From: an uncultured virus (IMG/VR IMGVR_UViG_3300025010_000041)
Lineage: Duplodnaviria; Heunggongvirae; Uroviricota; Caudoviricetes
Length of the DNA: 64,000 nt
Direction: 5' to 3' (one strand)
IMG/VR virus record: IMGVR_UViG_3300025010_000041
Shown here: positions 13,035 to 60,703 of the stretch, one piece after another
Layout of the letters: each line of letters opens with the position of its first letter
How positions within the stretch are numbered: the first letter of the stretch is position 1
Notes under the pieces: model-generated
The model's input: the letters and a program-made list of their open reading frames with translations, nothing else
The model's database searches: none
What the model was told of the DNA's origin: nothing
Program-made: the position numbers and the translations under genes

Positions 13035-13062
13035 TTGACACCCCGCTTGATTGTGGTAAACT
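13035..13062 (+). promoter_or_regulatory. CTTGA-box promoter
   Basis: TTGACA-16-TAAACT, CTTGA 13046. Confidence 0.9.
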
Positions 13063-13087
13063 AGACTATGAAAGAGAGGATAAAACC

Positions 13088-15292: not shown

Positions 15293-15321
15293 TTGTCACC
15301 CGCTCTTGATTGTAGTAAACT
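15293..15321 (+). promoter_or_regulatory. CTTGA-box promoter
   Basis: TTGTCA-17-TAAACT, CTTGA 15305. Confidence 0.85.
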
Positions 15322-15341
15322 GGAAAGCAAGAGGAAAAACC

Positions 15342-19611: not shown

Positions 19612-19625
19612 TTGGATTTGACAGG

Positions 19626-19642
19626 CTTGATTGTGGTATAAT
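19626..19642 (+). promoter_or_regulatory. CTTGA-box extended -10 promoter
   Basis: CTTGATTGTGGTATAAT; TTGACA only 13 nt upstream of the -10. Confidence 0.85.
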
Positions 19643-19665
19643 CTATAGCGAGAGGACAAAAGCAC

Positions 19666-23526: not shown

Positions 23527-23640
23527 ATCCATTTTGGCGACTTTGACGGAAAAACGAGCGCCGGAAGTCAGTTTGGCGGCAAATGATTGGCGAGGTTGAA
23601 AGAAACCACCGACCATGCCAAAAACAGGGAATTTGAGTGT

Positions 23641-23721
23641 TTTTCTTCGCATAGATTAATGTTTTCGCGCGCTTTACTTAATATAGATTCTTATTAAGTA
23701 CAGCGCGCGAAAAGGTTGATT
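23641..23721. repeat. AT-rich palindromic element, copy 2
   Basis: TTTTCGCGCGCTTTACTTAATA-TAGATTCT-TATTAAGTACAGCGCGCGAAAA. Confidence 0.95.
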
Positions 23722-23743
23722 AGGGTAAACGAAAAACGCACTC

Positions 23744-23772
23744 TTGACACGCTATTTTGATTATGGTAAACT
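23744..23772 (+). promoter_or_regulatory. CTTGA-box promoter (TTTGA variant)
   Basis: TTGACA-17-TAAACT. Confidence 0.9.
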
Positions 23773-23793
23773 CATTGCAAGAGGAAAATAACC

Positions 23794-28744: not shown

Positions 28745-28747
28745 TCT

Positions 28748-28764
28748 CTTGATTGTGGTATAAT
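28748..28764 (+). promoter_or_regulatory. CTTGA-box extended -10 promoter lacking TTGACA
   Basis: CTTGATTGTGGTATAAT, GGAGGA RBS, ATG 28784. Confidence 0.85.
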
Positions 28765-28783
28765 CAAAGTGGAGGAACAAACC

Positions 28784-33546: not shown

Positions 33547-33756
33547 ATGTTATCCCATGAGCGTAAACTAATCGAGCTACAAGATTTAGCCGCCAAACGA
33601 GACGGACTCCTGTCTATCTTTTTCTCCAACAAAGATCGCTGGACTTGTTCTGTTTCGGCGGTCGCCAATCGAGCGTCCATGATTTTTTGCGCCGGTTCTG
33701 GCGTCACAATGGCGCTGGCAATCGAAGCCTGCTATCAGGACTGGCAGGCGCAATAA
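33547..33756 (+). CDS. Hypothetical protein
   Basis: AAGAGGA RBS. Confidence 0.7.
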   Translation: MLSHERKLIELQDLAAKRDGLLSIFFSNKDRWTCSVSAVANRASMIFCAGSGVTMALAIEACYQDWQAQ

Positions 33757-35564
33757 TGACAGTTCAACCTAGAACCTATCAAACAGAAGCGGTCAAAGCG
33801 ATTTTTGCCGACTTTGACGCTGGCGTGAAATCAACCCTACTCATGGCTGCAACGGGAACCGGCAAAACGATCATGTTCCTGTTGGCAGTTGAGGAAATGC
33901 TTCGGCGCAAACCGGACGCCCGAATCGTAATCTTTGCCCACCGTGAAGAATTGATCTTCCAGCCGGTAGAGCGAGCCGAGCAGTTTTGGCCTGAAATCGC
34001 CCTGAGAATGGGCATCGTCATGGCAGAACGGCGCAATTATGCCGCTCAAATCGTGGTCGCCACTGTCCAGAGCCTGAGCAGTACTGACTGTAAGGGTGCA
34101 AAGTTGGTAACGGCCAACGGCCCGATTGACCTGGTTATTAGCGATGAAGCGCACCATACCCCAAGCGACACCTATCTGCAAACCATAAAAGCGTTAGGAA
34201 ACCCGCTTCTTTTGGGTTGCACGGCCACCCCGCGGCGCACGGATAATATCGGCCTGGGGGTGCTGTTTCAGAAAGTGGCGTACAAATTCTCAATTGAGTC
34301 TGCAATTCGAGAGGGTGCGCTTGTGCCGTTCAAGGCCCTGGGTTGCGTTCTGCCAGTGGATCGGGTGCAGGCGTCCGCCGATGACGAATCGGGCGAGAAG
34401 AAAAGTACCGCCGATCTGCTGATGGCCGATAACGTACTGGAAGTGGTATTCGAGAAGTGGCAAGAGTTGGCCTCAGACCGGCGCACGATCTTCTTTTGCG
34501 CTTCTGTCGCCCTGGCCCATGCTACCGTCGCGTATTTCAGCGGGCGCGGCGTGACGGCTGAGGCAGTGGACGGTACTACTCCCAAAGACTTGCGCCGGTC
34601 AATCCTGGCCCGCTATCAGTCGGGGAAAACTCAGGTGCTGGCAAACATGGCGGTTCTTACCGAAGGTTTTGACGCCCCCGAAACCGCCTGTATTGGGATG
34701 CTGCGCATGACAAATAGCGATCTTGTATATGCGCAATGTCTTGGGCGAGGGCTTAGGCCGGCCCCCGGAAAAGCGGACTGCCTGGTGATTGACTATGTTC
34801 CAAAAGGCGGCAAGCGCGACCTGATTATGGCGGGGGATATTCTCGAAGGCGACGGCCTGGACAAAAAGCAAAAGAAAGTTGTCAAGAAAGGCGAAGATGA
34901 CGGGCTGCTGTTTAATTTTCAGGTGATGAAAGAGGGGATCGGGGAGTTAGACCCGGCTGACGTGCAAATGGTGGTGCTGGATTATATGCGGGCGCACGAA
35001 TTAGCCTGGATTGGCGACGGGATGCACTCTATCGCCGCGCTTGACCAAGACAACGTGCTGGCGCTGGTTATCCCTGATGGCAATCGCCTGGCGAAAGCGG
35101 ACAGTCTACGGCGCACGGTTGGCTTGACCCCCGACCAGGAACGGCTGGCAGAGTATCTCAAAAAACACCGGCTGTACAAAGTCTGGCGTGAAACCGTGGA
35201 ACGCGGCGAGCGCAATCATAACCCCTGGCAGGTAGAGGTTATCGGGGATTATGCCGAGTTAGCGGACGCACAGCGAGCCGCCGATCATTTGGGTAGCGAC
35301 TACGGCGGAGCGACCCTGGCCTCGAAAAAGAAAGCCTGGCGTGATGAGCCTATGTCTGATGCTCAGAAAGGCATGTTGAAGCGCCTGGGGGCATACGAGG
35401 CCGGTTTAAGCAAGGGGCAAGCCTCGCAAAGAATCGCCCTGCTGACCACCCTGGCAGTTGTCAAGCCAGTTGAGGCCCAGCGGGAACGTGAAGCGGCGAG
35501 AAACGTACAGCGGGTATTGATTACGCCTGCGCCCATGCAATCACTTGACACCCGTCTTGAATAG
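33756..35564 (+). CDS. DEAH-box SF2 DNA helicase (RadD/Irc3-like)
   Basis: RTYQ, ATGTGKT, DEAHH, TATP, VLTEGFDAP, QCLGRGLRP. Confidence 0.95.
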   Translation: MTVQPRTYQTEAVKAIFADFDAGVKSTLLMAATGTGKTIMFLLAVEEMLRRKPDARIVIFAHREELIFQPVERAEQFWPEIALRMGIVMAERRNYAAQIVVATVQSLSSTDCKGAKLVTANGPIDLVISDEAHHTPSDTYLQTIKALGNPLLLGCTATPRRTDNIGLGVLFQKVAYKFSIESAIREGALVPFKALGCVLPVDRVQASADDESGEKKSTADLLMADNVLEVVFEKWQELASDRRTIFFCASVALAHATVAYFSGRGVTAEAVDGTTPKDLRRSILARYQSGKTQVLANMAVLTEGFDAPETACIGMLRMTNSDLVYAQCLGRGLRPAPGKADCLVIDYVPKGGKRDLIMAGDILEGDGLDKKQKKVVKKGEDDGLLFNFQVMKEGIGELDPADVQMVVLDYMRAHELAWIGDGMHSIAALDQDNVLALVIPDGNRLAKADSLRRTVGLTPDQERLAEYLKKHRLYKVWRETVERGERNHNPWQVEVIGDYAELADAQRAADHLGSDYGGATLASKKKAWRDEPMSDAQKGMLKRLGAYEAGLSKGQASQRIALLTTLAVVKPVEAQREREAARNVQRVLITPAPMQSLDTRLE

Positions 35565-35572
35565 GGTATAAT
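35545..35572 (+). promoter_or_regulatory. CTTGA-box promoter followed by a ~110-nt structured leader
   Basis: TTGACA-16-TATAAT, CTTGA 35556. Confidence 0.9.
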
Positions 35573-35686
35573 CAATCTATCTAATCAACCCGCGCCGGGC
35601 TTGCTGCCAGCGGCGCAAATCACTACAACAGGTTTGACTGGCAGCGGCAATTATTTTCAGTTTTTCAAAGAGAGGACAAAAAGACC

Positions 35687-38262: not shown

Positions 38263-39315
38263 ATGAGCGACTTACTCCAAGAGCTAATCAAGCACACTCA
38301 CGCTCCCCAGTTCAAGCGGCGCCACTTAGTCGCTTGCCCCAAGTGCGGCAGAATGGGCAACGGCAAAGACGAAACCTGCTCTTTTGGCCCGGACGGCTGG
38401 CACTGTTTCAAGTGCGGCGCGGGCGGGACGCTTACCGGCCTCGCAAAGCTGGTCAACCTCGAAGGCGAGTACGGCGCTCCCGAATTGCAGTCAACCCCCG
38501 AAACGCCCAAGCCTATCGCCACATGGCGCGCCACCCCCGAAAAGTGGCTGACCCGCTTCGAGAGTCACCCGCTCAGGGACGCGCTCTGGCAGGCATACAA
38601 GCCGCTGCGAGGGATTGATACTCTCCGCTATGGAGTTGGTCGGCTGGGTTCTCTCCCCTACGGTGAGAATGGTCACGCTTCGGCCTGCAACCATGAACGG
38701 CTGATTGTACCGATCTTTGACGGTACGATGCTTGTGTCGCTGCGAGGCCGGCAAATCAGCCGGTCACTGGCTGAGGCAGTTGGCGCTAAGTGGGAGGGCT
38801 GTCAGTGTGCGAAGTGGGCGCAAGCGGCAGGGTCAAGCATGGACGAATGGCCCATGTATGGCGAAACTGACCTGACCCCCGGTTGCACGGCGGCGATTGT
38901 TGAGAACACGGTAGACGCTAAATACCTATCACAAGAGACGGATATTGTCGGGCTGGCGATTTATTCGACCAGTTGCACGGCCCCGTTCGCTGCGGGCGGA
39001 CGCTGGCGCGAGGCGCTGCTGAAAGTCGGCGTCAAACGGCTGATCCTCTGGCTGGACAACGACCTGGTCGGCAACGGTGGCGCGCTGAGGCGGCGGGAGT
39101 TCCTGGCAATGCACCAGGAAAAGTGCGCTCATGATTTTGTCCGGCATAATCCGGGAAAGCCTGTTCCTCAGTCGTTCCCCGTCCCGGTCGCGGCGGCGTG
39201 GAAGATCATGCAGTATCTCAAAGACACGCCAATCGAGTTAGACCGTTGGGACTGGCGAAACGCCCCGCACAAAGCGGACTGCTACGGGTTATTATCGGGA
39301 CAGGTGACGCTGTGA
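38263..39315 (+). CDS. DnaG-like DNA primase (Zn-binding plus TOPRIM)
   Basis: CPKC..WHCFKCGAGG; RLIVPI; IVENTVDA; LWLDND. Confidence 0.8.
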   Translation: MSDLLQELIKHTHAPQFKRRHLVACPKCGRMGNGKDETCSFGPDGWHCFKCGAGGTLTGLAKLVNLEGEYGAPELQSTPETPKPIATWRATPEKWLTRFESHPLRDALWQAYKPLRGIDTLRYGVGRLGSLPYGENGHASACNHERLIVPIFDGTMLVSLRGRQISRSLAEAVGAKWEGCQCAKWAQAAGSSMDEWPMYGETDLTPGCTAAIVENTVDAKYLSQETDIVGLAIYSTSCTAPFAAGGRWREALLKVGVKRLILWLDNDLVGNGGALRRREFLAMHQEKCAHDFVRHNPGKPVPQSFPVPVAAAWKIMQYLKDTPIELDRWDWRNAPHKADCYGLLSGQVTL

Positions 39316-39791
39316 CCGTTATGACCGTGGACGCGGTCTGTCCCTGCGGCAATGAGTTCCAGCGGGCGCGCAATGTCCCGTCACAAACGCTCTGCCCGGA
39401 CTGCCGCAAGAAAGCGACCAAAGATTATCTGGCCGGGTATCGTTCGATCCACGCCGAGCCGAAGGAGCCTGCACCGGAGACGAAACCCTGGGTGCTGGTT
39501 TACGATCCAACCGGAGAGTTCGGACGGCTGGCGCTCTACCCGGAAGAAGCGGAGTTATCAGCCTACTACCTGGCAACCGGGTCGATTATCTGGACTGGCA
39601 GGCGCTGCAAGCGGGTCTGCGAAAACGGGGCGCTGGAAGCGAAGCCGCTGCGGGCGGTTGAGACGGTGGCAGTCGGCAAGCGGGTATTGCTAACAGACGG
39701 CAAAGAGTGGGCGGTGGCAGTCAAAACGAATAACGGCTGGGCCTGGAAATTGGGCAAGCCGATCAAACCAACCGGAGCGATAGAATTATGA
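39312..39791 (+). CDS. Zn-ribbon hypothetical protein
   Basis: CPCG..LCPDC. Confidence 0.65.
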   Translation: MTVMTVDAVCPCGNEFQRARNVPSQTLCPDCRKKATKDYLAGYRSIHAEPKEPAPETKPWVLVYDPTGEFGRLALYPEEAELSAYYLATGSIIWTGRRCKRVCENGALEAKPLRAVETVAVGKRVLLTDGKEWAVAVKTNNGWAWKLGKPIKPTGAIEL

Positions 39792-40744
39792 CCAGTCAAT
39801 TATTTTTAGGGGATTGTTTGGACGTTCTGCCGGGGTTGGAAGAAAAGAGCGTTGATCTTGCGCTTTTAGACCCGCCCTATTATCGGGTCATGTCAGACGG
39901 TTGGGATCGGCAGTGGAAAACCATGCAAGAATATATTGACTGGATTGAAACTTGTTTAGTCGCCGTCAAGCGGGTTATGAAAGATAACGGGAGTATGTAC
40001 ATTTTTGGCGACGATAAAAATATCGCTTACGTTCAAGTGATGGCAGACAAACACCTGACCCTGCTGAATAATATCGTCTGGTATAAGACCAATAACCAGA
40101 GCGTAAAAAGCGCCCCCAATCTTCGTAGTTGGGCACCTATGACTGAGAGAATTTTGTTCTACACCCCGCAACTTTGCAAGACCGGTCTTGAAACCGTGAA
40201 ACTTGACATTAACAATTTTACTGGACTGCGGGAGTATTTCAGGCAGTATCAAGAGGCGATAGGTCTAGGCTTGAAACAAATCAACGAGAAATTAGGACAC
40301 AGGCGCGCAGAACATGCGTTTTACTGGAACTCTACGCAGTGGGATTTACCAACCGCCGAAGTTTACGCAGAGTTAGGAAACGCTTTTCCTGTTGATTTTT
40401 CGCGCCGAGATTACGAGGAATTGAGGCGAGATTACGAGGAATTGAGGCGAGTCTTCCATGCCGATTTTAAGACTTTAGACGTTATCAGCGGGCCAATCGT
40501 TGACGCTGGTGACAATACCGACCACCCAACCACAAAACCCCTCTGGCTGATAAAGAGACTTTTGGCGGTCTCTACCAACCCCGGCGACGTGGTACTTGAC
40601 CCGACAATGGGATCGGGCACAACGGGAGTCGCTTGCGCTAAATTGGGCCGTGACTTTATCGGCATTGAACTTGACCCCGGCTACTTCGCTATCGCAGAAA
40701 AGCGTATCAAAGCGGCTGAATCGCAACTACTTTTAGGAATTTAG
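39788..40744 (+). CDS. DNA amino-methyltransferase (N4-C/N6-A, beta class)
   Basis: GDCL, DPPY, HPTTKP, DPTMGSGTTG, FIGIE. Confidence 0.95.
   Translation: MTSQLFLGDCLDVLPGLEEKSVDLALLDPPYYRVMSDGWDRQWKTMQEYIDWIETCLVAVKRVMKDNGSMYIFGDDKNIAYVQVMADKHLTLLNNIVWYKTNNQSVKSAPNLRSWAPMTERILFYTPQLCKTGLETVKLDINNFTGLREYFRQYQEAIGLGLKQINEKLGHRRAEHAFYWNSTQWDLPTAEVYAELGNAFPVDFSRRDYEELRRDYEELRRVFHADFKTLDVISGPIVDAGDNTDHPTTKPLWLIKRLLAVSTNPGDVVLDPTMGSGTTGVACAKLGRDFIGIELDPGYFAIAEKRIKAAESQLLLGI
40406..40451 (+). repeat. In-frame 21-bp tandem repeat (RDYEELR x2)
   Basis: CGAGATTACGAGGAATTGAGG twice plus CGAG. Confidence 0.95.
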
Positions 40745-40752: not shown

Positions 40753-41154
40753 ATGAAGAAGTTAGGACGTATCTTTATTCTGGCGGCGCTTGTCCTGCTG
40801 CTACTAATCGTTTTGAGCGCAGGGCGTGATTACCTGGCGCTGCAACCGGAGCCAACCCCCACCCCGACACTGACAGTCTGGGGCCAGTTGCAATCCACGG
40901 CGGTGGCGCTGACCGGAAGCGTCATCAGCCTGGGAGAGCAATCCGACGCGGCTGACCCCGTTGTGCAAGAGTACATTCGGCGGGAGTTGGAGCGGGCGGC
41001 GGTTGAAAAGGCGGCAGAAACGAGCGGCAGCGTCATTCCGCTGGCGTTTCTCGCCTGCTGTATCTGCGGACTGATCCCGTTTGTTTTTAGTGGGCTATTT
41101 GCTTACGTTCAAATTCGTAACGCCGCCTGGCGTGCGAAACAGATTGGAGGTTAA
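40753..41154 (+). CDS. 2-TM membrane protein with PTPT linker
   Basis: N- and C-terminal hydrophobic helices. Confidence 0.75.
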   Translation: MKKLGRIFILAALVLLLLIVLSAGRDYLALQPEPTPTPTLTVWGQLQSTAVALTGSVISLGEQSDAADPVVQEYIRRELERAAVEKAAETSGSVIPLAFLACCICGLIPFVFSGLFAYVQIRNAAWRAKQIGG

Positions 41155-41156
41155 CT

Positions 41157-41672
41157 ATGCGAAAGATTATTTTCCTGTTTGCGCTGTTCCTGACCGGCTG
41201 CGGTGTAAGCGATAACGAGGTCGCCCTCAAGCAAGCGCAGGCTGCGTTGGAGGCTAACCGCGGCTTGAACGCGGCGGTCAATTGGTTGGGCCTCTCGAAC
41301 GCCGCCATGAACGCGATTATGCTGGTTCTGTCGCTGGCAGTTATGACGGCGGTAGTGGTCGGCAGTTACATCGCCCTGGTTCACTTCGGGCTGGTCGCGG
41401 CCCCAGAGAAGGCGCCTACTGCCCGCGGCAAACGGAGTAAGAAGGCCCTGGCTGTCACCGGAAACCCTCTGGACGCTATCAGCATGGAGGACGCGCAGAA
41501 GTTGGCAGTTCTGGCACAGGTGAAACAGGCGGGGCTGGACGTGTCGGCGCTGTTCCCTGGACTGTCGGCCCGGCAAGCGCCCCCGCCGATCCAATACAGC
41601 GAACCGATGTACGGCCCTCAGCAACCCTCGCGCCTGCCCCCACCCCAACGGCCCACGGATAGGGAGTGGTAA
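41157..41672 (+). CDS. Lipoprotein with an internal TM helix and Pro-rich tail
   Basis: Lipobox LTGC. Confidence 0.75.
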   Translation: MRKIIFLFALFLTGCGVSDNEVALKQAQAALEANRGLNAAVNWLGLSNAAMNAIMLVLSLAVMTAVVVGSYIALVHFGLVAAPEKAPTARGKRSKKALAVTGNPLDAISMEDAQKLAVLAQVKQAGLDVSALFPGLSARQAPPPIQYSEPMYGPQQPSRLPPPQRPTDREW

Positions 41673-41676
41673 GACC

Positions 41677-41880
41677 ATGAAAAAACCCACCCTCCCCGAC
41701 GGTCAAGAGATTGAGCGCCACTGCCCGAAATGCGGGCCGGCTGCGAAACTCGTGATCCGCACCAATCGCACCAATGGCTCGCAGTTCTGCGGCTGTCCCA
41801 ATTGGCCCGACTGCACCTATACCGAAGAAGTTCCACCCGCTCTGTTGGCTGAGGCCGGCGGGCAACCGAAGTTGTTCTAG
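41677..41880 (+). CDS. Topoisomerase-type C4 zinc-finger protein
   Basis: CPKCG..LVIR...G.F.GC.NWP.C.YT. Confidence 0.85.
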   Translation: MKKPTLPDGQEIERHCPKCGPAAKLVIRTNRTNGSQFCGCPNWPDCTYTEEVPPALLAEAGGQPKLF

Positions 41881-41919
41881 CGAATAAGTGTAAAATTATT
41901 TTGACAAGGAGTTGAGACG

Positions 41920-42432
41920 ATGTCCGAATACGAAAAATGCCCAGATGAGGTAATCTCCCTGGCGCAGGAAGTGATCGAGTTGTACCACCCCGAACTAACC
42001 CACGGCGCTTGCGCTATCGGGTTTATCATGCGCTCAGGCCCACCGGCGAAATCGGGCGGGCGCGAGGTTTGGGGCAAGTGCAAGAAAGTCGGGGATGAAC
42101 TGCAACCCTATATCCCAGACGAACTGGACTTTGTGATTATTCTCAGCGAGGACGCATGGGCCGAGTTGGGCGAGGATCAGAAACGGGCGCTGCTCGACCA
42201 CGAGCTTTGTCATATCCAGTTGGATGACAAGGGCAATTGGAGGCTGCGAGGCCATGACTTCGAGGAATTTGTCGAGGTCGTTCACCGCTGGGGTGCCTGG
42301 CGGATCGACTTGATGGAGGCCAAGTCGGCCTTCGATACCGCCGAACAGGGTATCTTGCCGGGGCTGTTGGAAGAAAAGCACAAGAAGCAGGGACGGCTGG
42401 TGGCGATGGAGGCTTACAGCGAGAGAGAGTAA
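41920..42432 (+). CDS. Putative phage metallopeptidase
   Basis: ALLDHELCH, HDFEEF..VV.R.G. Confidence 0.8.
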   Translation: MSEYEKCPDEVISLAQEVIELYHPELTHGACAIGFIMRSGPPAKSGGREVWGKCKKVGDELQPYIPDELDFVIILSEDAWAELGEDQKRALLDHELCHIQLDDKGNWRLRGHDFEEFVEVVHRWGAWRIDLMEAKSAFDTAEQGILPGLLEEKHKKQGRLVAMEAYSERE

Positions 42433-42465
42433 AAAGAGACCGGGCGAGAAATTGCCCGGTCTTTT
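42432..42465. terminator. Probably bidirectional intrinsic terminator
   Basis: AAAAGAGACCGGGC/GCCCGGTCTTTT. Confidence 0.8.
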
Positions 42466-42479
42466 GCTAATATTGCCTC

Positions 42480-42508
42480 TTGACAACCTATCTTGAATAT
42501 AGTAAACT
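42480..42508 (+). promoter_or_regulatory. CTTGA-box promoter
   Basis: TTGACA-17-TAAACT; nearly identical to 45291-45319. Confidence 0.92.
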
Positions 42509-42550
42509 GTATTTATCAATCAAAACCAGATAGGAAAAGAGGAAAAAACC

Positions 42551-42811
42551 ATGAACATCAAAATTAATTTTGGGAAAAAAGAAGCAACGAGAGTGTTTGT
42601 TGGCGAAAAAGACACTGTCATCACCATGCCAGACGGCAAGGTGCGGGTCTATATCCAGGCCCCTAACCGGGTACTGGACGTTACCGACGAATCGGCCTGC
42701 AACGAACACGGAAACGAGGTTTGGGACGGCGCTACCGTCGCTGAGGCAGTCGCGCGGGGTTTGTCGTGGTGGGTGACTACCGAAGGGCGATTGGTATTTC
42801 AGGCCCGCTAA
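42551..42811 (+). CDS. Hypothetical protein (monocistronic; hairpin 42830-42857 follows)
   Basis: AAGAGGA RBS. Confidence 0.75.
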   Translation: MNIKINFGKKEATRVFVGEKDTVITMPDGKVRVYIQAPNRVLDVTDESACNEHGNEVWDGATVAEAVARGLSWWVTTEGRLVFQAR

Positions 42812-42894
42812 AATAAACCAACAAACACCAGAGCCGTCCTAGAAATAGGGCGGCTTTGTCGTTTTAGCGTAGAAAGATTAGAGTTTCTCGAATG

Positions 42895-42974
42895 GTGTAC
42901 ACTTTGCCTTGACATTGTGTACACTTTTTGGTATTCTACGCACAGTTGATACTATACGCAAAGGACTATACGCA
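42895..42974 (+). promoter_or_regulatory. Promoter with two classes of operator-like repeats
   Basis: TTGACA(42909)-17-TATTCT; GTGTACACTTT at 42895 and 42917; ACTATACGCA at 42951 and 42965. Confidence 0.8.
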
Positions 42975-42975
42975 C

Positions 42976-43215
42976 ATGAAGCGACTGAACGTTTCCGAGA
43001 TACAGAAGATCAGCCTGCGGCAGATCGCCGCTCGACACGGCTTTTACATTGGCCGCGGCACAATGAGTAAAAGCGGCTCAATTGACCAGTTGATCCAGGC
43101 GATTGCCACCGGTCACGCGGTGGTAGTGCCGATCCAGGGCGACGTTCACGGCGTGCTGGAATTTGAGTTAGAGGCGGCGGAAAAACTGCGCAACGGAGGC
43201 GAGAATGAAAACTAA
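42976..43215 (+). CDS. Small putative DNA-binding regulator
   Basis: AAGGA RBS; basic helical 79-aa protein directly after the operator repeats. Confidence 0.55.
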   Translation: MKRLNVSEIQKISLRQIAARHGFYIGRGTMSKSGSIDQLIQAIATGHAVVVPIQGDVHGVLEFELEAAEKLRNGGENEN

Positions 43216-45208
43216 ACTGTTGATCCTGCTGGCCCTGGCCCTGCTGTTGGCTGGCTGTGGGCCGATGACACAGGCCGACCCCGTTTCGGCGCAGTTGACC
43301 GGAGAGGCGGACAACCTGCTTCTCTATCAGGCGCAGTTGCGCGCCACCGGCACCGCTTCTGTCGTTCAAGCGCAGGCGCGTGAAACTCAAATGGCTCTCG
43401 ACGCTCAGGCCACCGCTATCGAACGTGAACGGGTGCAGTGGACGGTTGAGGCGCAGCAAGCATCCGCTCGCCAGACCCAGACCGCGGCTGAGTTGGCCGC
43501 GTCTATTCGCCAAACTCAGGTTGCGAACGAAGTCATGATCGCCCAGGCTCAGGCCCAGGCAACCCTGCAAGTCGGGGCGGATCGCGCCACTTCCACGGCT
43601 CGCGCCGGAGAAGCGCAGGCGACGGCCACCGCTCAGGCCGGCAATGCCCAGGCCACCGGAACGGAACAGGCGGCGGGTATGTGGCTGGAAAAGACGGCTC
43701 AGTCTGCCGATAGTGCAATCCGGGCGCAAGCGACCCTGGACGCGGCGGCGGCGTCTCTGGCCGACCAGGGAGTCCGGCGCGGCGAGATGCAAAACCAGGG
43801 GCTGGCGTTCCTGCAACTGGCCGGCGCTCCGGCTCTGATTATGCTGGCCGTGGCGCTGTTTATTTTTGTGATTGTGTTCGCCGCCAACCACCGCACGATC
43901 CGGCGCGATGAGCGTGGCGTGCTGCCTGGCGTGTTCCACAACGGCAAGTGGATCGACGGCGACCTGGCAACCGGCGCAGTTACCGATCCAAGCGGGCCTC
44001 AAATCCTGCTGCCGACGATGCTGCAAGCGGCGCTGTTGGAGCGCAAGCAGCGGCTGTTGGCTCTGCGGATCGCTACCGACCCCACGGTGCGCGGCGGGCC
44101 GGCGGATATGTTAGAGTCGCTGATGGCCCCGACTGCCCAGGTACAGGCCCCGGCATACATACCGGATCGCACCCCCGAAATGGCTGACTTTTCAGCAGTC
44201 ATGGACGCTCGCAATCGCGGCGTGATGCTGTTGGGAGTTGGAGAAAACGGGCTGGTACGGGCACGGCGCGACACGCCTCACCTGATTATGGCGGGTCAAA
44301 CCGGATCGGGCAAGTCCACCGCTATGCGGGCCGTGATCTTGCAGTACATTCTCGCCGGCGCACGCGTCACGATCCTGGACAAGTCGGGTAAAGACTTCGG
44401 CGTCTTTGATGGCTATGCCAATGTGCTGACTTTCGACGCTCGCAAGCCCGATATTGCCGTTCCCAGCTTGGTCGCTCACATGAAAGCAGCCTGGAACGAG
44501 ATCATTCGCCGGCAGGTGGACATGCGCTCCAGCAAAAGCCGCAACTGGACGGGACAGGCAGACGTTTTGGTGGTAGACGAACTTGATAACTGGGGCGGTA
44601 TCACTAACGACTCCGAGACTACCACCACCCGGCTCTGGCAGTACCCCAAGATGATCGCCCGCGAGGGTCGTTCGGCTGGCGTCTGGGTTGTCACCGCTTC
44701 TCAGAACCCCGTAGCTGAAAACGTCTCACTTGACCTGCGGCGCAATAGCACCCCGGTTGCGTTCCGGTTGGGGGATCGCTACGCATCGAACACCGTGATC
44801 GGCACAAGCGACGCGGTTGGGCTGGAGACCGGTCACTTCCTGGCACTGGTTGGAAGCGGAGAGACCGGGCTGGTACACGGAGTGGGCTTCAACCCGGAAG
44901 ATGACGAAATCTTGCAGGCCCTCGAACGCGGCGGAGCGAAGAAGCTGATCGGCAAGCCGGAATGGATGGCAGGGATTGACGAAGTTGAGGACGCCGAGTT
45001 TGAGACCATCACCGGCCCAGTCTACAGCGAAAAGACAATCAAGATCGCTCTCCAGATCGAACCGCTGTACCGGGCGCAGATCGAAGAATCGGGCAAACCG
45101 AACAAGTCGGCGCTGGCGCGTGAGTTAGGAAAGACCTATGCCGGCTCGACGGTTGGCGACATCGCTCAGGCGATCAACTACCTGGAAAACTCTACTACTA
45201 CTTCGTAG
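43205..45208 (+). CDS. FtsK/SpoIIIE (TraB-like) DNA translocase with lipoprotein signal, Ala/Gln/Thr-rich stalk, TM helix and C-terminal HTH-like segment
   Basis: Lipobox LAGC; PHLIMAGQTGSGKS; LVVDE; AREGRSAG; ASQNP; NKSALARELG. Confidence 0.85.
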   Translation: MKTKLLILLALALLLAGCGPMTQADPVSAQLTGEADNLLLYQAQLRATGTASVVQAQARETQMALDAQATAIERERVQWTVEAQQASARQTQTAAELAASIRQTQVANEVMIAQAQAQATLQVGADRATSTARAGEAQATATAQAGNAQATGTEQAAGMWLEKTAQSADSAIRAQATLDAAAASLADQGVRRGEMQNQGLAFLQLAGAPALIMLAVALFIFVIVFAANHRTIRRDERGVLPGVFHNGKWIDGDLATGAVTDPSGPQILLPTMLQAALLERKQRLLALRIATDPTVRGGPADMLESLMAPTAQVQAPAYIPDRTPEMADFSAVMDARNRGVMLLGVGENGLVRARRDTPHLIMAGQTGSGKSTAMRAVILQYILAGARVTILDKSGKDFGVFDGYANVLTFDARKPDIAVPSLVAHMKAAWNEIIRRQVDMRSSKSRNWTGQADVLVVDELDNWGGITNDSETTTTRLWQYPKMIAREGRSAGVWVVTASQNPVAENVSLDLRRNSTPVAFRLGDRYASNTVIGTSDAVGLETGHFLALVGSGETGLVHGVGFNPEDDEILQALERGGAKKLIGKPEWMAGIDEVEDAEFETITGPVYSEKTIKIALQIEPLYRAQIEESGKPNKSALARELGKTYAGSTVGDIAQAINYLENSTTTS

Positions 45209-45234
45209 GGCGGTGTGTAGAGGCCAAAACAGAC

Positions 45235-45285
45235 ACAGGGCGGGAAGTAGTAGTAGGATTTACGAAACTTCTCGCCCTGTTTTTT
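45235..45285 (+). terminator. Intrinsic terminator overlapping a competing inverted repeat
   Basis: ACAGGGCGGGAAGT/ACTTCTCGCCCTGT then T5. Confidence 0.7.
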
Positions 45286-45290
45286 GCCTC

Positions 45291-45319
45291 TTGACAACCT
45301 ATCTTGATTATAGTAAACT
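45291..45319 (+). promoter_or_regulatory. CTTGA-box promoter
   Basis: TTGACA-17-TAAACT, CTTGA 45303. Confidence 0.92.
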
Positions 45320-45359
45320 GTATTTATCAATCAAAACCAGACGGAAAGAGGACAATCCC

Positions 45360-46232
45360 ATGAGCGAAAAACTGTTGAAGCTGTACAACGAGGCCCGCAA
45401 ACGCGGGCGCAAGCCTGCCGGAATGCAGGCATATATTGTCACTACTCGCGAAAGCGAGAACCCGCTGATGTCGAATAACGGCGGCGATTACGACTTCGGC
45501 TACACCCTGCTGGTTGAAACCGCGACTGGCAAGGTGATCGGCGGGCGGCACTGGACTTCTGCTGAGTTTGATTACTGCCCCGGTTGCGGTAGTTTTCGCC
45601 GCGACTGTGACTGCGAAACGTTTTACTCCCATTGGGATAAGTATGACGGCAGCGGCAAAGAGCGCGAGTGGCAGACTGCCACCAACGATTTCGGCACGAT
45701 TGGCTGGGGAACATTTCTGCCCCTGGATTACTTTTCACTGGAGTAAAAACCATGTTTGAAAACGGCTACAAAATGATCGGGCCTGCCTATCGGTACACGG
45801 GTAGAATGACCACTATCGCCGGGAAGCTGCAAGAGCGGGAAGATAATACTTCCACTCGCGGGGGTCTCAATCCGTGCAAGCGATACGCTGACGGGCGGCA
45901 GAAACGGCGCTTGCAGAAAGCGAAGAACGGGGGCCGCAAGTGAAAATTCCAAACGCAAACCCGTTGGCGGCGTTCAAGATCGGGGCATACATCACGGTCG
46001 GGATACTCTCTCTCAAGATTGCGTTTACCGTAACCCCGTTTTTGCCGTGGTCTATGTTTCTGTTTATTCTTGCGGCGTTTTGGTTCAGCGCAGCCGTCAA
46101 TGGCTTTATGCGCTGGTTGGCGGGGCAAGAATGACCTGGATATATCTGTTTTGCGTCATCAGCGTGATTGGCTCGCTGCTGGCCGTGGCGTTTTTCTACG
46201 CCGCCTCAAGCCGGCGCAGGGGGCAGCCATGA
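45360..46232 (+). other. Four small genes (45360-45746, 45752-45943, 45940-46134 2-TM, 46131-46232 1-TM)
   Basis: RBS and overlaps. Confidence 0.7.
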
Positions 46233-47074
46233 CCTGGACTAATCTTCTTGACACAACGGAAGCGGGGGTGATCGCCCTGGCCCGCAAGTTGGGGCCGTGG
46301 CTGATTACCGGCCCGACTGCCTACGCCATTTATGACGGCGTGATGACCCGCTGGCAATGGCCCCGGTCTGTGGCAGTGCTGACCGGAGCGGGGCTGGAAA
46401 TTCTCGGCGTGGTGACAACCTACACCATGCTGGAACTGTTCAGCTACAATCAGGCAATCACTCGCGCCGACGATCCGAAGCGCCCGACCTGGTTAGCGGG
46501 GGCAGCGACGGTCATTTACCTGGCCGCGACGTTGACGCTGACGTGGGGCATTGAGGGCGATTGGATGCTGGCCCTATTCCCCCTACTGAACGTCTCCGGC
46601 TCCCTGATCCTGGCCCTATCCTCCCTACACCGCTCCCTACAGGCGCGTTTAGCAGGGACGGTAGAGGCCGAAAAAGAGGCTGCGAAGGTGGCGCAAGAGA
46701 TCGCAGAAGCCGCGGCAGTTGCGAATCGCCTGGCGCAAGAAGCCGCGACTTTGGCGCAGATTGAAGCGCAGAAGCAGTTGAAACTGGCGAGGATTGCCGC
46801 AAAAGCTGCGAAGAAAAGCGCAGAAGTTGCGGTAGAAGTTGCGCCCGCCGAGACCGCAAACGAAGCGCAAGCCGGTTGGTTGGGTTGGAATAGCCGGCCC
46901 ACGAAAGACGCCTTTTTGCAGATGATGCTGGCTCGCAACGGGACGGCTCCAACGAAAGCGGAGACGATGCGCGGACTGGCGACCCTGGACGTGCCGGAAG
47001 CGACCCGGCGCTATTGGTGGAACGAGTACGAGGTTCGGAAATCGGCAGCGGTGCCGGAGGTTGAGGGAATATGA
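46229..47074 (+). CDS. 4-TM plus coiled-coil membrane protein (Spd-like architecture)
   Basis: Four hydrophobic helices, Ala/Glu/Lys coiled coil, helical C-terminal domain. Confidence 0.6.
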   Translation: MTWTNLLDTTEAGVIALARKLGPWLITGPTAYAIYDGVMTRWQWPRSVAVLTGAGLEILGVVTTYTMLELFSYNQAITRADDPKRPTWLAGAATVIYLAATLTLTWGIEGDWMLALFPLLNVSGSLILALSSLHRSLQARLAGTVEAEKEAAKVAQEIAEAAAVANRLAQEAATLAQIEAQKQLKLARIAAKAAKKSAEVAVEVAPAETANEAQAGWLGWNSRPTKDAFLQMMLARNGTAPTKAETMRGLATLDVPEATRRYWWNEYEVRKSAAVPEVEGI

Positions 47075-48342: not shown

Positions 48343-48370
48343 ATTGTCTTGCGAGGCAAAAATGGGCGTT

Positions 48371-48460
48371 TTTTCTTCGCATAGATTAATGTTTTTATGC
48401 ACTTTACTTAATACAGATTCTTATTAAGTAAAGTGCATTAAAAGGTTGATTAGCGTATAC
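48371..48460. repeat. AT-rich palindromic element, copy 3
   Basis: ATGCACTTTACTTAATA-CAGATTCT-TATTAAGTAAAGTGCAT (perfect 17-bp arms). Confidence 0.95.
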
Positions 48461-48475
48461 AGATAAAGAGGGCTA

Positions 48476-48502
48476 TTGACACTCGCTTGATTGTGGTATA
48501 AT
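48476..48502 (+). promoter_or_regulatory. CTTGA-box promoter
   Basis: TTGACA-15-TATAAT; CTTGATT-7-AATCAAG palindrome over the -10. Confidence 0.85.
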
Positions 48503-48523
48503 CAAGCGCAAGAGGACAAAACC

Positions 48524-55784: not shown

Positions 55785-55862
55785 GTATACGCATAATCAA
55801 CCTTTTAATGCACTTTACTTAATAAGAATCTGTATTAAGTACAGCGCGCGAAAAGGTTGATT
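55785..55862. repeat. AT-rich palindromic element, copy 4 (inverted core, chimeric arms)
   Basis: AATCAACCTTTTAATGCACTTTACTTAATA-AGAATCTG-TATTAAGTACAGCGCGCGAAAAGGTTGATT. Confidence 0.95.
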
Positions 55863-55963
55863 GTTGTATAACAATAATCAAATTATTTGAGCAAAAAGTG
55901 ATAACTATACGCACTTTCGCCCAAATACATTTGCGTGTCTGATAATCGCCCTCGCCCGCGCAT

Positions 55964-57171: not shown

Positions 57172-57741
57172 ATGACCGAAAAGACTGGCCCCAAAAGAAG
57201 CGACTCAGAGCGAGAACGGGATTACTCGCTGATTGCGGATTGGTACGTTCGCAACTGGACTCACTTCGCTATCATGGAGGAACTGAATAAGCTGCATTAT
57301 CCCAATAATCCCATGACCCGGCAGCAGGTCTCTTATGACATTCAGAAAGTGCTAAAGCGCTGGCGAGATCGGGCATCAACCGCAATTGACCAACACAAAG
57401 CGGACGCCCTGGCCCGGATCGACAAAGTTGAGGCTGAGTTTTGGGGCGCGTGGGAACGTTCGCTTGCCGAGCGAACGATACCTGGCAAGGGCGATGAACC
57501 GCCAATCACCATCAAGCCCGATGGAGACCCTCGCTTTATGACCGGCGTCCTGGACTGTGTGCGAGAGCGGGCGAAACTATTCGGTCTATACGCACCTGTG
57601 CGCACCAATGTTACTTTTGGGAATTTGAACGATGAGCAACTTATCGCCTATGTCAAGGAGCAGCTTGGAGAACTTGGCGCTCTCGCTCCAGGAACTGAAC
57701 AAGCGCAAGCTGTCCCTGAAACCGAAAGCCAAGACGATTGA
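57172..57741 (+). CDS. terS: Terminase small subunit
   Basis: HTH-like TRQQVSYD; GDPRF...RAKLFGL.AP; immediately before TerL. Confidence 0.75.
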   Translation: MTEKTGPKRSDSERERDYSLIADWYVRNWTHFAIMEELNKLHYPNNPMTRQQVSYDIQKVLKRWRDRASTAIDQHKADALARIDKVEAEFWGAWERSLAERTIPGKGDEPPITIKPDGDPRFMTGVLDCVRERAKLFGLYAPVRTNVTFGNLNDEQLIAYVKEQLGELGALAPGTEQAQAVPETESQDD

Positions 57742-59134
57742 CTTCGTTGACCCCGATCCTGTGCGCTGGATACGGCGGCATTTTCGCATTCCCGAAACCA
57801 ACACGCACCGCTTCAACTTCCACCCCTACCAGGAAATGTCACTGCGCGCCGCCCTACACCGTAACGAGGCGGGCGAGTTCGATTACTCCACCATCCTATG
57901 GTCGGATATCAAGAAGTCGGCAAAATCTACCATCGCCGCGGCGGTCATGCTGTGGATGGCCTGGCAATCGGAGTGGGGCAGCGTCTATATCATCGCCAAC
58001 GACTTAGAGGGCGCGGCCAGCCGGGTCGGGCACTACATCACCCGCTCCATCGAACTGCACCCGACTATGCGCGAGGTAATCAGGGTCATTCCCTCTCGCA
58101 ACCGGATCGAATTTCCCAACCACGCATTTATTCAGTTCATCCCGATTGACCCCAGCGGTGAGGCCGGGTCGAACGCCGACGCCGTCTGCTGGTCGGAACT
58201 CTGGGGAGCGCACGAAAAAGCCAACGAGAAAATGTGGACAGAGCTTACCCTAAGCCCGATGAAGCACGGCAAATCGTTCCGCTGGGTTGAAACGTATGCC
58301 GGTTACTCCAACGAATCCAGGCTGCTGGAAAATCTCTATCACACCGGCGTCAAAGAGGGTGCGCCTATCGCCTGGGCCGGAGACTTCACGCCCGCAATCG
58401 AAGCGTTCACCAACCCAACCGCCCGCCAGTTCACCCTCTGGAATACGCACCCCCGCCTACCGTGGCAGAATCAAGAATATTATGCGGAACAGGCAGCTTC
58501 TCTTGACCCGGCAGAGTTCAACCGTGTTCACCGCAACCAGTGGTCAAGTTCTCGCCAAACATTCGTGCCCGCTGAGTGGTGGGAGGCTTGCAAAGAAAAT
58601 TGCACGCCGCTGATTAAAAATCAATCGGTCATTCTCGGAATGGACGCCGCGGTGACCGGTGACTGTTTTGGCCTGCTGATGGTCAGTGGACGCGGCGACG
58701 GCAACTATGACGTTCGTTACGCCCGCAAGTGGACACCCCCCAAAGGCGGCAAACTGGATTTCGGCAGCGAGGATGGGCCGGAGTCAGAGCTTCGGCGGTT
58801 ACTGTTAGAGTATAATGTCGTAGAGGTGGCCTATGACCCCTACCAGTTGGAAGATATGGCAAGCCGGATCGGCGGCGAAATGATCGGATCGTTCTATGCC
58901 TTCAACCAGGGTGCGCAGCGAGCCGTGGCCGACAAAGCGCTGCAAGACGCCATTCGTGACCGGCACATTCACCACAATGGGCTGTTTCATGACCTGACTG
59001 AGCATATCAACAATGCAAACTCGAAACTGGACGGCGAAAAGTTGAGACTGGTCAAGAAAGCCGACAACATGAAAATAGACCTGAGCGTCTGTCTATCAAT
59101 GGCGCTGGAACGTGCGAATTATTGGGGTATCTAG
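57632..59134 (+). CDS. terL: Terminase large subunit
   Basis: HPYQ, KKSAKST (Walker A variant), WSELW (Walker B variant), H.NQW, GMDAA...D, YDPYQ, KID....L.MA. Confidence 0.9.
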   Translation: MSNLSPMSRSSLENLALSLQELNKRKLSLKPKAKTIDFVDPDPVRWIRRHFRIPETNTHRFNFHPYQEMSLRAALHRNEAGEFDYSTILWSDIKKSAKSTIAAAVMLWMAWQSEWGSVYIIANDLEGAASRVGHYITRSIELHPTMREVIRVIPSRNRIEFPNHAFIQFIPIDPSGEAGSNADAVCWSELWGAHEKANEKMWTELTLSPMKHGKSFRWVETYAGYSNESRLLENLYHTGVKEGAPIAWAGDFTPAIEAFTNPTARQFTLWNTHPRLPWQNQEYYAEQAASLDPAEFNRVHRNQWSSSRQTFVPAEWWEACKENCTPLIKNQSVILGMDAAVTGDCFGLLMVSGRGDGNYDVRYARKWTPPKGGKLDFGSEDGPESELRRLLLEYNVVEVAYDPYQLEDMASRIGGEMIGSFYAFNQGAQRAVADKALQDAIRDRHIHHNGLFHDLTEHINNANSKLDGEKLRLVKKADNMKIDLSVCLSMALERANYWGI

Positions 59135-59158: not shown

Positions 59159-60703
59159 ATGCCTGAAACCGACTTTATCGTAAAATCCGTCACGGCAGGA
59201 GACGCCGGTACCGTTCAGGGCGGGGTGATGAGCCTGATTATCCCTCAGATATGGGGGAACATGAACAATATCCCCATTCCGCCGCAGCAGCCCGTTTACT
59301 GGTCGCCGGGGAGCGACGTAGTCTTGCGCGCAACCGTTCACGCCGAGGCCATGTGGGCCGCGGCAGTTGGGATCGCCATTTCACAAACCGCCAGCAAAGC
59401 GTTCGAGATCAAAACCAATCAACCCCGCAAAGCCAAGAAGTTCCAGGAGCTATTCCTGTATGCCGATGGACGCACGGTCGGTTGGGTATCATTCCTCAGC
59501 AAGCACTTACGAGATTTCTTGTGTTCCAATAACGGCGCGTTCGTGGAAATTGTGCGCGCCAACAAGTCCCACGGCAGCGAGATTATCGGTATCCGACACC
59601 TCGATTCGGCGCGCTGTTCCCGCACTGGCGACCCCGATATTCCCCTGCTCTACCGGGATCGAAAGAACAAAGTGCATGAGTTGAAAAACTACCAGTGCAT
59701 GCTGTTTAGTGACATGCCCGACCCCTCCGAAATGTATTATGGCGTTGGGTTATGCGCCGCCGCCCGTTCCTACCCGGCGATCTACAAGCTGGCGACAATG
59801 GAGTGGTACCTGCGCGAGAAAGTCGGCGGGCTGAGACCGCTGGCAATCTATATCGTCAACGGGCTTTTACAGCAGCAGGTCGAAGGCGCGGTCAAGGCCG
59901 CTCAGGAACAGACCGTGGCGAAGGGCCTGGCCGCCTACATGGGAGCGGTCATGGTCGGTATCCCCGGCGACAAATCACCCGAAGTGGCAACCATCCCCCT
60001 GGCTGAGTTACCGGACAGGTTTGACCGCAAAGAAGAATTTGACATTGCCATTCTCACCTATGCGAACAATCTCGGTTTAGACCCGCAAGAGTTGCAACCG
60101 CTATCGGGATCGTCTTTAGGGACAGGTGCGCAGTCTCAGGTCTTGCACGACAAAGCGATGGGTAAGGGCTTAGCCGCCTGGCAGCAGCAGTGGACGCATC
60201 AGGTCAATGAGTTGATCCTGCCCGAAACGGTTATCTGGCAGTTTATCGAGAAAGACATTCGCGACATGAAAGCCCACGCCGATTACGAGAAGGTCAAAGT
60301 TGAGACCGCCAAAGCCGCGGTTGAAGGCGGTATCCTCATGCCCGAACAGGCGGTACAGGTGCTGGTAGACGATGACATTCTGCCGCGCGAGTTCCTGCCC
60401 AAAGACGCCACCGGAGAAGTCACGCTGACCGATACCGACAAACTCAAGCCCGAAGTCAAGCCCGCCGAAGTGGTCGCCGATCCGTTAGCGGAAGCCGACG
60501 CGGCCGCCGAGGCTGAACTTGAAGAAGTGCCTGTGGCTGAGACGCCGGTTGACGCGGAAGCGGAGAAAAAGCAAAAAGAGTGGGAAGTGGGGCTGAAAGA
60601 GGCGAAAGCGATGCTTTCCAAGCGGAAAGTTGAGACGCTCTTTGAGCGGGCGCATTTGAGCGCACGGCTGAAAGCGGGAGTGCGTAAACATGCCAGACGA
60701 TAG
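59159..60703 (+). CDS. Portal protein
   Basis: Follows TerL; DFL..NNGAFVEI.R, HLDS.R, YYGVG; acidic tail. Confidence 0.8.
   Translation: MPETDFIVKSVTAGDAGTVQGGVMSLIIPQIWGNMNNIPIPPQQPVYWSPGSDVVLRATVHAEAMWAAAVGIAISQTASKAFEIKTNQPRKAKKFQELFLYADGRTVGWVSFLSKHLRDFLCSNNGAFVEIVRANKSHGSEIIGIRHLDSARCSRTGDPDIPLLYRDRKNKVHELKNYQCMLFSDMPDPSEMYYGVGLCAAARSYPAIYKLATMEWYLREKVGGLRPLAIYIVNGLLQQQVEGAVKAAQEQTVAKGLAAYMGAVMVGIPGDKSPEVATIPLAELPDRFDRKEEFDIAILTYANNLGLDPQELQPLSGSSLGTGAQSQVLHDKAMGKGLAAWQQQWTHQVNELILPETVIWQFIEKDIRDMKAHADYEKVKVETAKAAVEGGILMPEQAVQVLVDDDILPREFLPKDATGEVTLTDTDKLKPEVKPAEVVADPLAEADAAAEAELEEVPVAETPVDAEAEKKQKEWEVGLKEAKAMLSKRKVETLFERAHLSARLKAGVRKHARR

Follow-up and report, generated by a model that had tools for sequence, protein, structure and literature searches.

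A 64,000-nucleotide stretch of DNA from an uncultured tailed virus (IMG/VR record IMGVR_UViG_3300025010_000041, Caudoviricetes), called here over its full length the window, encodes a membrane-anchored FtsK-type ATPase that belongs, as judged from sequence comparison, to a distinct, well supported and populous clade that has so far had no name. Members of this clade occur in the mobile DNA of Chloroflexota, in temperate tailed phages as well as in small integrated elements devoid of virion genes, and their build (anchor, stalk, transmembrane (TM) helix, ATPase domain and helix-turn-helix (HTH)-like domain) is a real family trait. By analogy with the TraB/Spd systems of Streptomyces, the ATPase and its membrane partners may form a module that moves DNA between cells without virions, a reading that we favor tentatively and rate somewhat below an even chance. 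What is new here is the clade, the architecture and the phylum; plasmid-type DNA pumps in phages are of a kind already known. The ATPase is composed, from its N to its C terminus, of the following parts.

43205..45208, + strand: membrane-anchored FtsK-superfamily ATPase, open reading frame (ORF) of 667 amino acids
Up to Cys18: lipobox signal
Residues 19-205: Ala/Gln/Thr helical segment (stalk)
Residues 208-226: TM helix, followed by a linker
Residues 330-590, approximately: ATPase domain
Residues 605-664: three-helix HTH-like domain

The open frame, the amino acid composition, the match to PF01580 and an AlphaFold2 model all bear out the preliminary description of this protein as a 667-residue FtsK-family ATPase with a lipobox, a stalk, a TM helix and a C-terminal HTH-like segment. 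Its N terminus, MKTKLLILLALALLLAGC, combines a charged n-region with a hydrophobic core and an L-A-G-C lipobox, and hydrophobicity peaks at residues 5-23 and 208-226. Ala, Gln and Thr make up 51.3% of residues 19-205 (187 residues), compared with 21.5% of residues 227-667, and the sequence RTIRRDER lies directly C-terminal to the 208-226 helix, which is consistent with a cytoplasmic ATPase domain. In the AlphaFold2 model the stalk was predicted to be all-helical, with low confidence (predicted local distance difference test, pLDDT, below 50), the ATPase core reached pLDDT values of 85-93, and the C-terminal 60 residues formed three helices (pLDDT about 89). The protein scored 31.9 bits against PF01580 (FtsK_SpoIIIE, cut-off 24) and matched PHROG 1358 (FtsK/SpoIIIE-like) with an E value of 3e-25, NCBIfam gave sub-threshold P-loop matches only, and a profile of the C-terminal domain found no significant match among PDB sequences. 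The Walker A (GQTGSGKST) and Walker B (VLVVDELD) motifs are intact and conserved. The Pfam score above the gathering threshold, these motifs and the RecA-like fold make the protein a P-loop member of the FtsK/SpoIIIE-HerA superfamily. At the position of the FtsK 'QRP' motif the family has QNP, QDP or TDP, and two Streptomyces Tra proteins have QFP or QKP, which was uninformative.

In agreement with the earlier suggestion that the ATPase groups with DNA translocases, TcpA and FtsK ranked ahead of EccC and HerA both by sequence and by fold. The best solved relatives by sequence were TcpA of plasmid pCW3 (E value 1.8e-11) and FtsK (4.4e-9), followed by HerA (0.005), EccC5 (0.0066) and TrwB (0.15), and a Foldseek search with the AlphaFold2 model ranked TcpA first (3.3e-16), then FtsK (4.9e-15), EccC (1.4e-11) and HerA (2e-6). 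Plasmid records matching the ATPase numbered 212, with 109 of them from Clostridium (TcpA type) and an identity of about 26%, and the match to phage records was confined to the ATPase core, with 22-30% identity.

A word-indexed search returned 47 proteins, 17 of them with the entire architecture, and relatives P0002-P0012 showed 40-52% identity to the ATPase. When a profile was run against 1.84 billion cluster representatives, 302 were recovered at E<=1e-30, and the best 150 of these 302 were mostly 560-720 amino acids long and matched from end to end. Two hydrophobic anchors before residue 330 were present in 114 of 133 family proteins (all of at least 560 amino acids); in these 114 members the anchors are separated by a median of 153 amino acids (range 0-251), a spacer with a median Ala+Gln+Thr content of 50%, and 85 of the 114 contain a lipobox-like motif, as defined by a loose pattern. 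The lipid-anchored stalk remarked on earlier is real, and stalk and anchor are a trait of the family. Because the family is large and bears just a partial, generic Pfam label, naming it would improve annotation.

A family hidden Markov model (HMM) scored members at 275 bits or more and other FtsK-like proteins at no more than about 142 bits. A tree of 47 motor domains (one of 48 rows, a second Streptomyces Tra, was dropped as unmatched by the family HMM) was obtained by a quick LG+G4 search in which long outgroup branches are unreliable. All 19 family rows fell into a single clade (Shimodaira-Hasegawa-like approximate likelihood ratio test, SH-aLRT, 100; stem length 0.95), apart from cellular FtsK, TcpA/TcpB, the remaining Streptomyces Tra, itself on a long branch, and a Corynebacterium plasmid protein. 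Two phage proteins of FtsK-like type, from Bacillus phage B5S and Mycobacterium phage WXIN, grouped with cellular FtsK, outside the family. With a clade of its own the ATPase is not a TraB, and its derivation from a cellular FtsK captured by a phage was likewise rejected, given the separate clade and the absence of FtsK-specific domains.

Other searches were less productive. A scan of viral contigs with the single ATPase protein found no match, a metagenome scan with an alignment of close relatives was dominated by generic FtsK (best identity 31%) and contained no close relative, and a back-translated motif of the close subfamily had no match in viral or genome contigs. Two family genes are disrupted. 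That of locus L005 (2121-4331) contains a frameshift, its C-terminal part being read at 4011-4331 in a different frame, and one of the two family copies of genome G420 (G420:C2, 3390-5372) contains an in-frame TAG; these are either decaying copies or assembly errors.

Pattern scans over one genome per species returned 29 relatives. Five of them belong to the ATPase family, all in Chloroflexota metagenome-assembled genomes (MAGs), the carriers being two Ardenticatenaceae, one Anaerolineales, one Chloroflexota and Candidatus Trichofilum aggregatum. A phylum-wide whole-genome search, with three candidates scored per genome, matched one of 401 evenly sampled genomes at E<=1e-40, namely the query genome itself, and the order to which four of the five carriers belong yielded matches in 10 of 167 genomes, with nine reaching family level. 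The relatives point to Chloroflexota as the probable host phylum of the window phage. Candidatus Trichofilum is described in PMC10746286 as forming filaments of 60-200 um, seen by fluorescence in situ hybridization (FISH). Of the host first proposed, a filamentous bacterium probably of the Chloroflexota, the phylum is retained and one carrier is a FISH-verified filament former, but a filamentous host of the window phage itself is unsupported.

Gene context was compared in 19 loci (the window, L001-L005, L030, L031, L033, L034 and L213-L221; L032 is a duplicate of L031), with the family matches G537:C105 and G424:C263 and the weaker G418, G409:C21 and G002:C39 lying outside this comparison. Within about 2 kb of the ATPase gene, 10 of the 19 loci encode a protein with four TM segments, a coiled coil and an HTH, which is of the DUF2637 type in five (L003, L004, L005, L215, L220) and of the type encoded by the window at 46229-47074 in the other five (window, L033, L034, L213, L214). 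A protein of 110-190 amino acids, consisting of a TM segment, an Ala/Gln helix, a second TM segment and a tail, adjoins the ATPase in 11 of 19 loci (L001, L003, L004, L005, L215, L220, L221, L030, L031, L033, L034). ParA-like genes stand next to the ATPase in five loci (L001, L003, L004, L031, L215), and a ParB-like gene lies near it in L033.

Recombinases were found in eight of the 19 loci, of tyrosine type in L002, L030, L031, L033 and L034 and of large serine type in L213, L217 and L218; the serine recombinase is carried by L213 and stands at the end of L217 and L218, with host genes beyond it in these two. Virion or packaging genes occur in five loci: the window, L030 (tape measure), L031 (scaffold), L033 (TerS/TerL) and L034. 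No virion genes were present within the DNA fetched for L213, L214, L217 and L218, and L213 and L214 encode Replic_Relax proteins, L214 also a TrwB-like ATPase. The presence of the family in capsid-less elements argues that its function serves mobile DNA generally rather than the virion cycle. L004 has a split DUF2637 gene beside the ATPase (7065-8254, the N-terminal part at 7065-7421), and the downstream ORF joins DUF2637 segments, an HNH endonuclease domain and a C-terminal HTH; this looks like a homing-endonuclease-type insertion.

In the window, the following membrane proteins are encoded near the ATPase.

46229..47074, + strand: membrane protein of 281 residues, comprising 3-4 TM segments, a coiled coil and a C-terminal domain, 1 kb downstream of the ATPase; recurrent partner in L033, L034, L213 and L214
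41157..41672, + strand: lipoprotein of 171 amino acids with lipobox LTGC, a short Ala/Gln helix, one TM segment and a Pro-rich tail
40753..41154, + strand: 2-TM protein of 133 amino acids, module membership unsupported
45940..46134, + strand: small hydrophobic ORF of 64 amino acids, module membership unsupported

The preliminary description had listed these four genes as accompanying membrane proteins. Its second lipoprotein, 41157-41672, was verified by the lipobox and the single TM segment, and by its design may correspond to the 2-TM Ala/Gln-helix protein of the relatives. The products of 40753 and 45940 are small and hydrophobic, as described, but have no counterpart in any relative locus compared, so that the proposed co-occurrence of the membrane genes with the ATPase holds for the 46229-47074 type and for neither of these two. 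The four TM segments assigned to 46229-47074 were evident in its relatives, but of the 3-4 moderately hydrophobic segments in the window protein only one exceeds a strict threshold.

The relationship of 46229-47074 to Spd proteins, also anticipated, was found to the extent that this protein is built like a DUF2637 protein and resembles that family weakly at profile level. In a profile-profile comparison (hhalign) with six sequences per side, the 46229-47074 type aligned with DUF2637 with a probability of 76% and an E value of 2.3e-5 over 175 columns; a coiled coil lies within these columns and may raise the score artificially. DUF2637 (PF10935) did not match any of five members of the 46229-47074 type even at E<=10, and an HMM of the DUF2637 neighbors had no match in the window. 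On Streptomyces plasmids of 7-8 kb, a DUF2637 gene immediately follows the FtsK/SpoIIIE (Tra) gene plus a small ORF, which we take to be the position of the spd gene. A complex prediction for ATPase residues 195-667 with 46229-47074 gave a score of 0.00 ('no answer') and speaks neither for nor against binding.

The immediate surroundings of the ATPase gene contain the following features.

42473..42539, + strand: 67-nt promoter repeat (TTGACA-17-TAAACT), heading ORF 42551-42811
42829..42858, + strand: terminator-like hairpin of 13 pairs plus a T-run (-24.1 kcal/mol, z -5.8), closing the upstream one-gene unit
42895-42902 and 42917-42924, + strand: two GTGTACAC palindromes, on either side of the -35 hexamer
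42909-42937, + strand: promoter-like sequence of the cassette, TTGACA-17-TATTCT, with TG before the -10 hexamer
42976..43215, + strand: 79-residue ORF whose 3' end overlaps the ATPase start; candidate cassette regulator
45236..45285, + strand: terminator-like hairpin followed by T6, immediately past the ATPase stop codon (-28.1 kcal/mol, z -5.3)
45284..45350, + strand: second copy of the 67-nt promoter repeat, heading the unit that holds 45360-45746, 45940-46134 and 46229-47074

Read from these signals, the ATPase gene appears as an insulated two-gene cassette with a sigma-70-like promoter of its own, two operator-like palindromes and terminators on both sides. GTGTACAC occurs in just these two copies in the whole window. 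The operon of its own and the operator repeats that had been described are supported by the promoter, the palindromes and the hairpins; the small regulator fared less well, as the 79-residue ORF matched no regulator family or any other family. The two 67-nt repeats at 42473 and 45284, which are 93% identical (other copies, at 6733 and 9420, 67%), bracket precisely an 86-residue gene and the ATPase cassette, an arrangement consistent with the block having been gained or shuffled when promoters recombined.

If the module moves DNA in the manner of TraB and Spd, the ATPase would form a ring in the cytoplasmic membrane, its C-terminal HTH-like domain would load it onto the DNA of the element, and it would pump double-stranded DNA outward through the envelope or septum. 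Its partners would be the 4-TM, coiled-coil and HTH protein (46229-47074) and a small Ala/Gln-helix membrane protein, perhaps 41157-41672. The lipid-anchored Ala/Gln/Thr helices would be either part of an extracytoplasmic conduit or its hold on the wall. The phage genome could then enter neighboring cells without virions, as do Streptomyces plasmids and the integrative and conjugative elements of actinomycetes (AICEs) with TraB and Spd. Taken to its full extent, this proposal would have Chloroflexota mobile elements, phages among them, own a minimal conjugation machine of new design, consisting of an FtsK-like motor ring, a lipid-anchored Ala/Gln/Thr hairpin conduit, a 2-TM helix protein and a 4-TM DNA-binding protein, which would pass the replicating phage genome along the filament without lysis under a dedicated operator; in this complete form we consider it unlikely.

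Several observations weigh against transfer of this kind. Identity to Streptomyces Tra is 25% over 181 residues, and the family clade is separated by its long stem (0.95) from Streptomyces Tra, TcpA and FtsK alike. The top-ranked fold matches of the C-terminal three-helix domain are all DNA-binding HTH domains, none of them significant (best E value 0.5). A clt-like site such as that near traB was not found, there being no array of 5-8-mers in or near the ATPase gene except for codon repeats of the stalk. The candidate parts (ATPase, 46229-47074 and 41157-41672) lie in different transcription units of the window, and the genes first grouped as a DNA-transfer kit span at least three such units and are not one kit. 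The 4-TM partner was not found in nine of the 19 loci, within the DNA available, and the best match to the 2-TM partner in the window, 41157-41672, was not significant (E value 0.14). The protein encoded by 46229-47074 matches no Pfam family, the comparison of its type with DUF2637 gave a probability of 1% when five sequences were used, and the clusters labelled DUF2637 and SpdB in the protein Atlas, at 0.80-0.81 and all below 0.9, are leads only. The Pfam models SpdB_N and HTH_SpdB_C, to which the Atlas points, did not come up when these proteins were scanned against Pfam. Window scans, covering the 64 kb, revealed no integrase, partition or repressor genes and no lysogeny or plasmid genes, and a temperate or plasmid state of the window phage therefore lacks support. 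The host is assigned from relatives, and those of TerL split between a Chloroflexota MAG and an Omnitrophota MAG. Finally, phages that infect unicellular hosts can also encode FtsK-like ATPases.

Among the other explanations, the one that survives best is that the ATPase serves the segregation or rescue of element DNA inside the host, acting as a septum pump like FtsK/SpoIIIE so that the daughter cells of a filament inherit genomes, with no transfer to naive cells. The FtsK type of the motor, the ParA-like genes beside the ATPase in five of 19 loci and the ParB-like gene in L033 are in line with such a role. However, cellular FtsK has no extracytoplasmic stalk or lipid anchor, the family has none of the FtsK 4TM, alpha and gamma domains, its 4-TM and HTH partners are built like the Tra-adjacent proteins of Streptomyces conjugative plasmids, and neither ParA nor ParB was seen in window scans; we regard segregation as an unlikely explanation.

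Less probable is superinfection exclusion or defence, in which the ATPase would be a moron-like, separately expressed cassette whose membrane-bound product blocks or expels incoming foreign DNA. An insulated cassette with its own promoter, operator-like sites and terminators would suit this role, PHROG 1358 is filed under moron/host takeover, weak matches to the defence ATPases mad8 (2e-7) and SspH (1e-6) were obtained, and the relatives L215 and L219 lie in defence-rich regions. Nevertheless, the PADLOC matches are limited to the P-loop core, the family retains its C-terminal HTH-like domain and dedicated membrane partners, and it is also found in elements otherwise made up of recombination and replication genes, which together render exclusion improbable.

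That the ATPase is a type VII (EccC/EssC) secretion ATPase exporting phage or element proteins is highly improbable and was rejected on domain count and the HTH-like domain: EccC and EssC are among its sequence and fold matches, but they rank far behind TcpA and FtsK, EccC has three ATPase domains where the window protein has one followed by an HTH-like domain, and window scans found no WXG100-like or other type VII genes. Least probable of all, and likewise rejected, is a role as an additional packaging motor, serving a satellite or a capsid with an internal membrane, comparable to that in viruses with FtsK/HerA-type packaging; PHROG 2666, which bears the label terminase large subunit, was matched weakly (E value 4.5e-10) and might speak for it. 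Because a conventional TerL is present, the ATPase is not the packaging motor, as had been argued from the start, and its family occurs in capsid-less elements and has a lipobox, an extracytoplasmic stalk and a TM anchor that are ill suited to a capsid vertex. DNA transfer between cells is our preferred, if tentative, reading.

The gene content of the window is that of a tailed-phage genome with nearly every gene on the + strand, and in the protein collection the ATPase gene is borne on a contig of 93,905 bp. Other features of this genome are listed below.

57632-59134: TerL (Pfam TerL_nuclease; PHROG 9 at E 1e-36)
33645-35564: helicase, from window scans
38263-39315: primase-like gene, from window scans
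6749-6771, 13043-13065, 15302-15324, 19623-19645, 23753-23775, 28745-28767, 35553-35575 and 48483-48505: promoter-like blocks of the CTTGATTGTGGTATAAT type
23640-23774, 48370-48504 and 55796-55877 (also 5036-5104): repeat of the TTTACTTAATA...TATTAAGTA type

The intact TerS/TerL/portal set that had been reported was confirmed only for TerL, since family scans of the window proteins gave no TerS match for the putative TerS (57172-57741) and no portal match for the putative portal (59159-60703). The two TerL relatives found come from a Chloroflexota MAG (42% identity) and from a 1.9-kb contig binned as Omnitrophota (48%). The window also encodes a C39-like endolysin candidate and several DNA methyltransferases; the four genes of the latter type (7459-8250, 22074-23336, 25875-26876 and 39788-40744) comprise a DUF4942 protein (labelled DNA methyltransferase in PHROG), a C5 cytosine methylase, an MTS-type methylase and an N6/N4 methylase, which suggests a heavy investment in anti-restriction. 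The 447-residue protein of 13917-15260 contains a Gp3-like recombination-directionality-factor domain (PF18897, E 2.7e-15), yet no integrase was found in the window. An adjacent gene pair at 18456-19611 matches PHROG 15826 and 4899, phage families without assigned function, and its second gene encodes a Vut_1 domain (putative vitamin/queuosine-precursor transporter), an unusual thing for a phage to carry. The conserved CTTGATTGTGGTATAAT-type block, present in at least eight copies, heads successive phage transcription units and is often followed by AGAGGA...ATG about 15 nt downstream; the promoter of the ATPase cassette differs from it. Just upstream of promoter copies lies a repeat of 82-135 nt with a long internal palindrome (TTTACTTAATA...TATTAAGTA, with GC-rich arms), which could be a shared terminator or regulatory hairpin.

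Chloroflexota, a phylum of filamentous bacteria poorly represented in culture, are important in wastewater treatment and in sediments, and to our knowledge almost nothing has been learned of their routes of gene exchange. If phages use the pump, virus spread within a filament can bypass virions, and infection, host range and phage counts would have to be read differently. A literature search found no published account of such DNA-transfer modules in Chloroflexota, and we know of TraB-type single-protein transfer of double-stranded DNA only from actinomycetes.

The closest functional analogs of the ATPase are the TraB/Tra proteins of Streptomyces (pSVH1 and pIJ101 type) and of AICEs, with which it shares a single FtsK-like ATPase and an N-terminal membrane anchor and may share a C-terminal domain of DNA-binding type; carriage by integrative elements is a further feature in common with TraB/Spd systems, and a 4-TM protein ending in an HTH nearby and a tightly regulated unit may be others. 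Thoma et al. (2015, PMC4447253) describe TraB as an FtsK-like translocase reading 8-bp clt repeats, traR and traB as a kil-kor pair in which the repressor restrains traB, and SpdB2, the partner of TraB, as an oligomeric 4-TM pore former that binds DNA and peptidoglycan. The discussion of the same article already puts forward the spread of phage DNA by plasmid-type transfer and spread genes, and in the account of Ghinet et al. (2011, PMC3218068) AICEs are defined by Int, Rep and an FtsK-type Tra and are described from Actinobacteria only. In contrast to TraB, the window family has a lipobox and an extracytoplasmic Ala/Gln/Thr helical segment of about 150-190 amino acids between two anchors, forms a separate clade, shows no 8-bp clt repeats and has hosts among Chloroflexota rather than Actinomycetota. 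As for the 4-TM spd gene adjacent to traB, a DUF2637 gene adjoins the ATPase in the five loci given above, and the window has a different 4-TM and coiled-coil protein.

TcpA, the coupling protein of Clostridium perfringens pCW3 (PDB 6o1w), is the best solved match and shares the FtsK-like motor and the N-terminal membrane anchoring; unlike the window ATPase, it belongs to a multi-protein Tcp locus, where it adjoins the relaxase TcpM and a second FtsK-domain protein. Window scans found no relaxase or other Tcp-like or transfer families, and the TcpA clade is separate. Cellular FtsK matches carry the FtsK 4TM (PF13491), alpha (PF17854) and gamma (PF09397) domains, none of which was matched by the window ATPase, and its single ATPase domain (TIGR03924, 19.9 bits against a cut-off of 509) sets it apart from EccC/EssC, which belong to type VII loci and contain three FtsK-like ATPase domains in tandem. 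FtsK-type ATPases in tailed phages are exemplified by the FtsK/SpoIIIE-like proteins of Bacillus gamma-like phages, of B4/B5S and of Mycobacterium phage WXIN, and the FtsK/SpoIIIE genes of Bacillus phages are mentioned by Gillis and Mahillon (2014, PMC4113786) as being of unknown function; in the tree such proteins (those of B5S and WXIN) group with cellular FtsK, and they are not known to have the stalk or the partners. A virion-forming element with plasmid-type transfer genes is also represented by the Streptomyces plasmid-phage pZL12, mentioned in PMC4487206, and by actinophages with SpdB2 homologs, which differ from the window phage in phylum, ATPase clade and partner family. Set against these systems, the extracytoplasmic lipid-anchored stalk is a concrete structural novelty, and the family suggests a TraB-analogous but structurally different machine in Chloroflexota.

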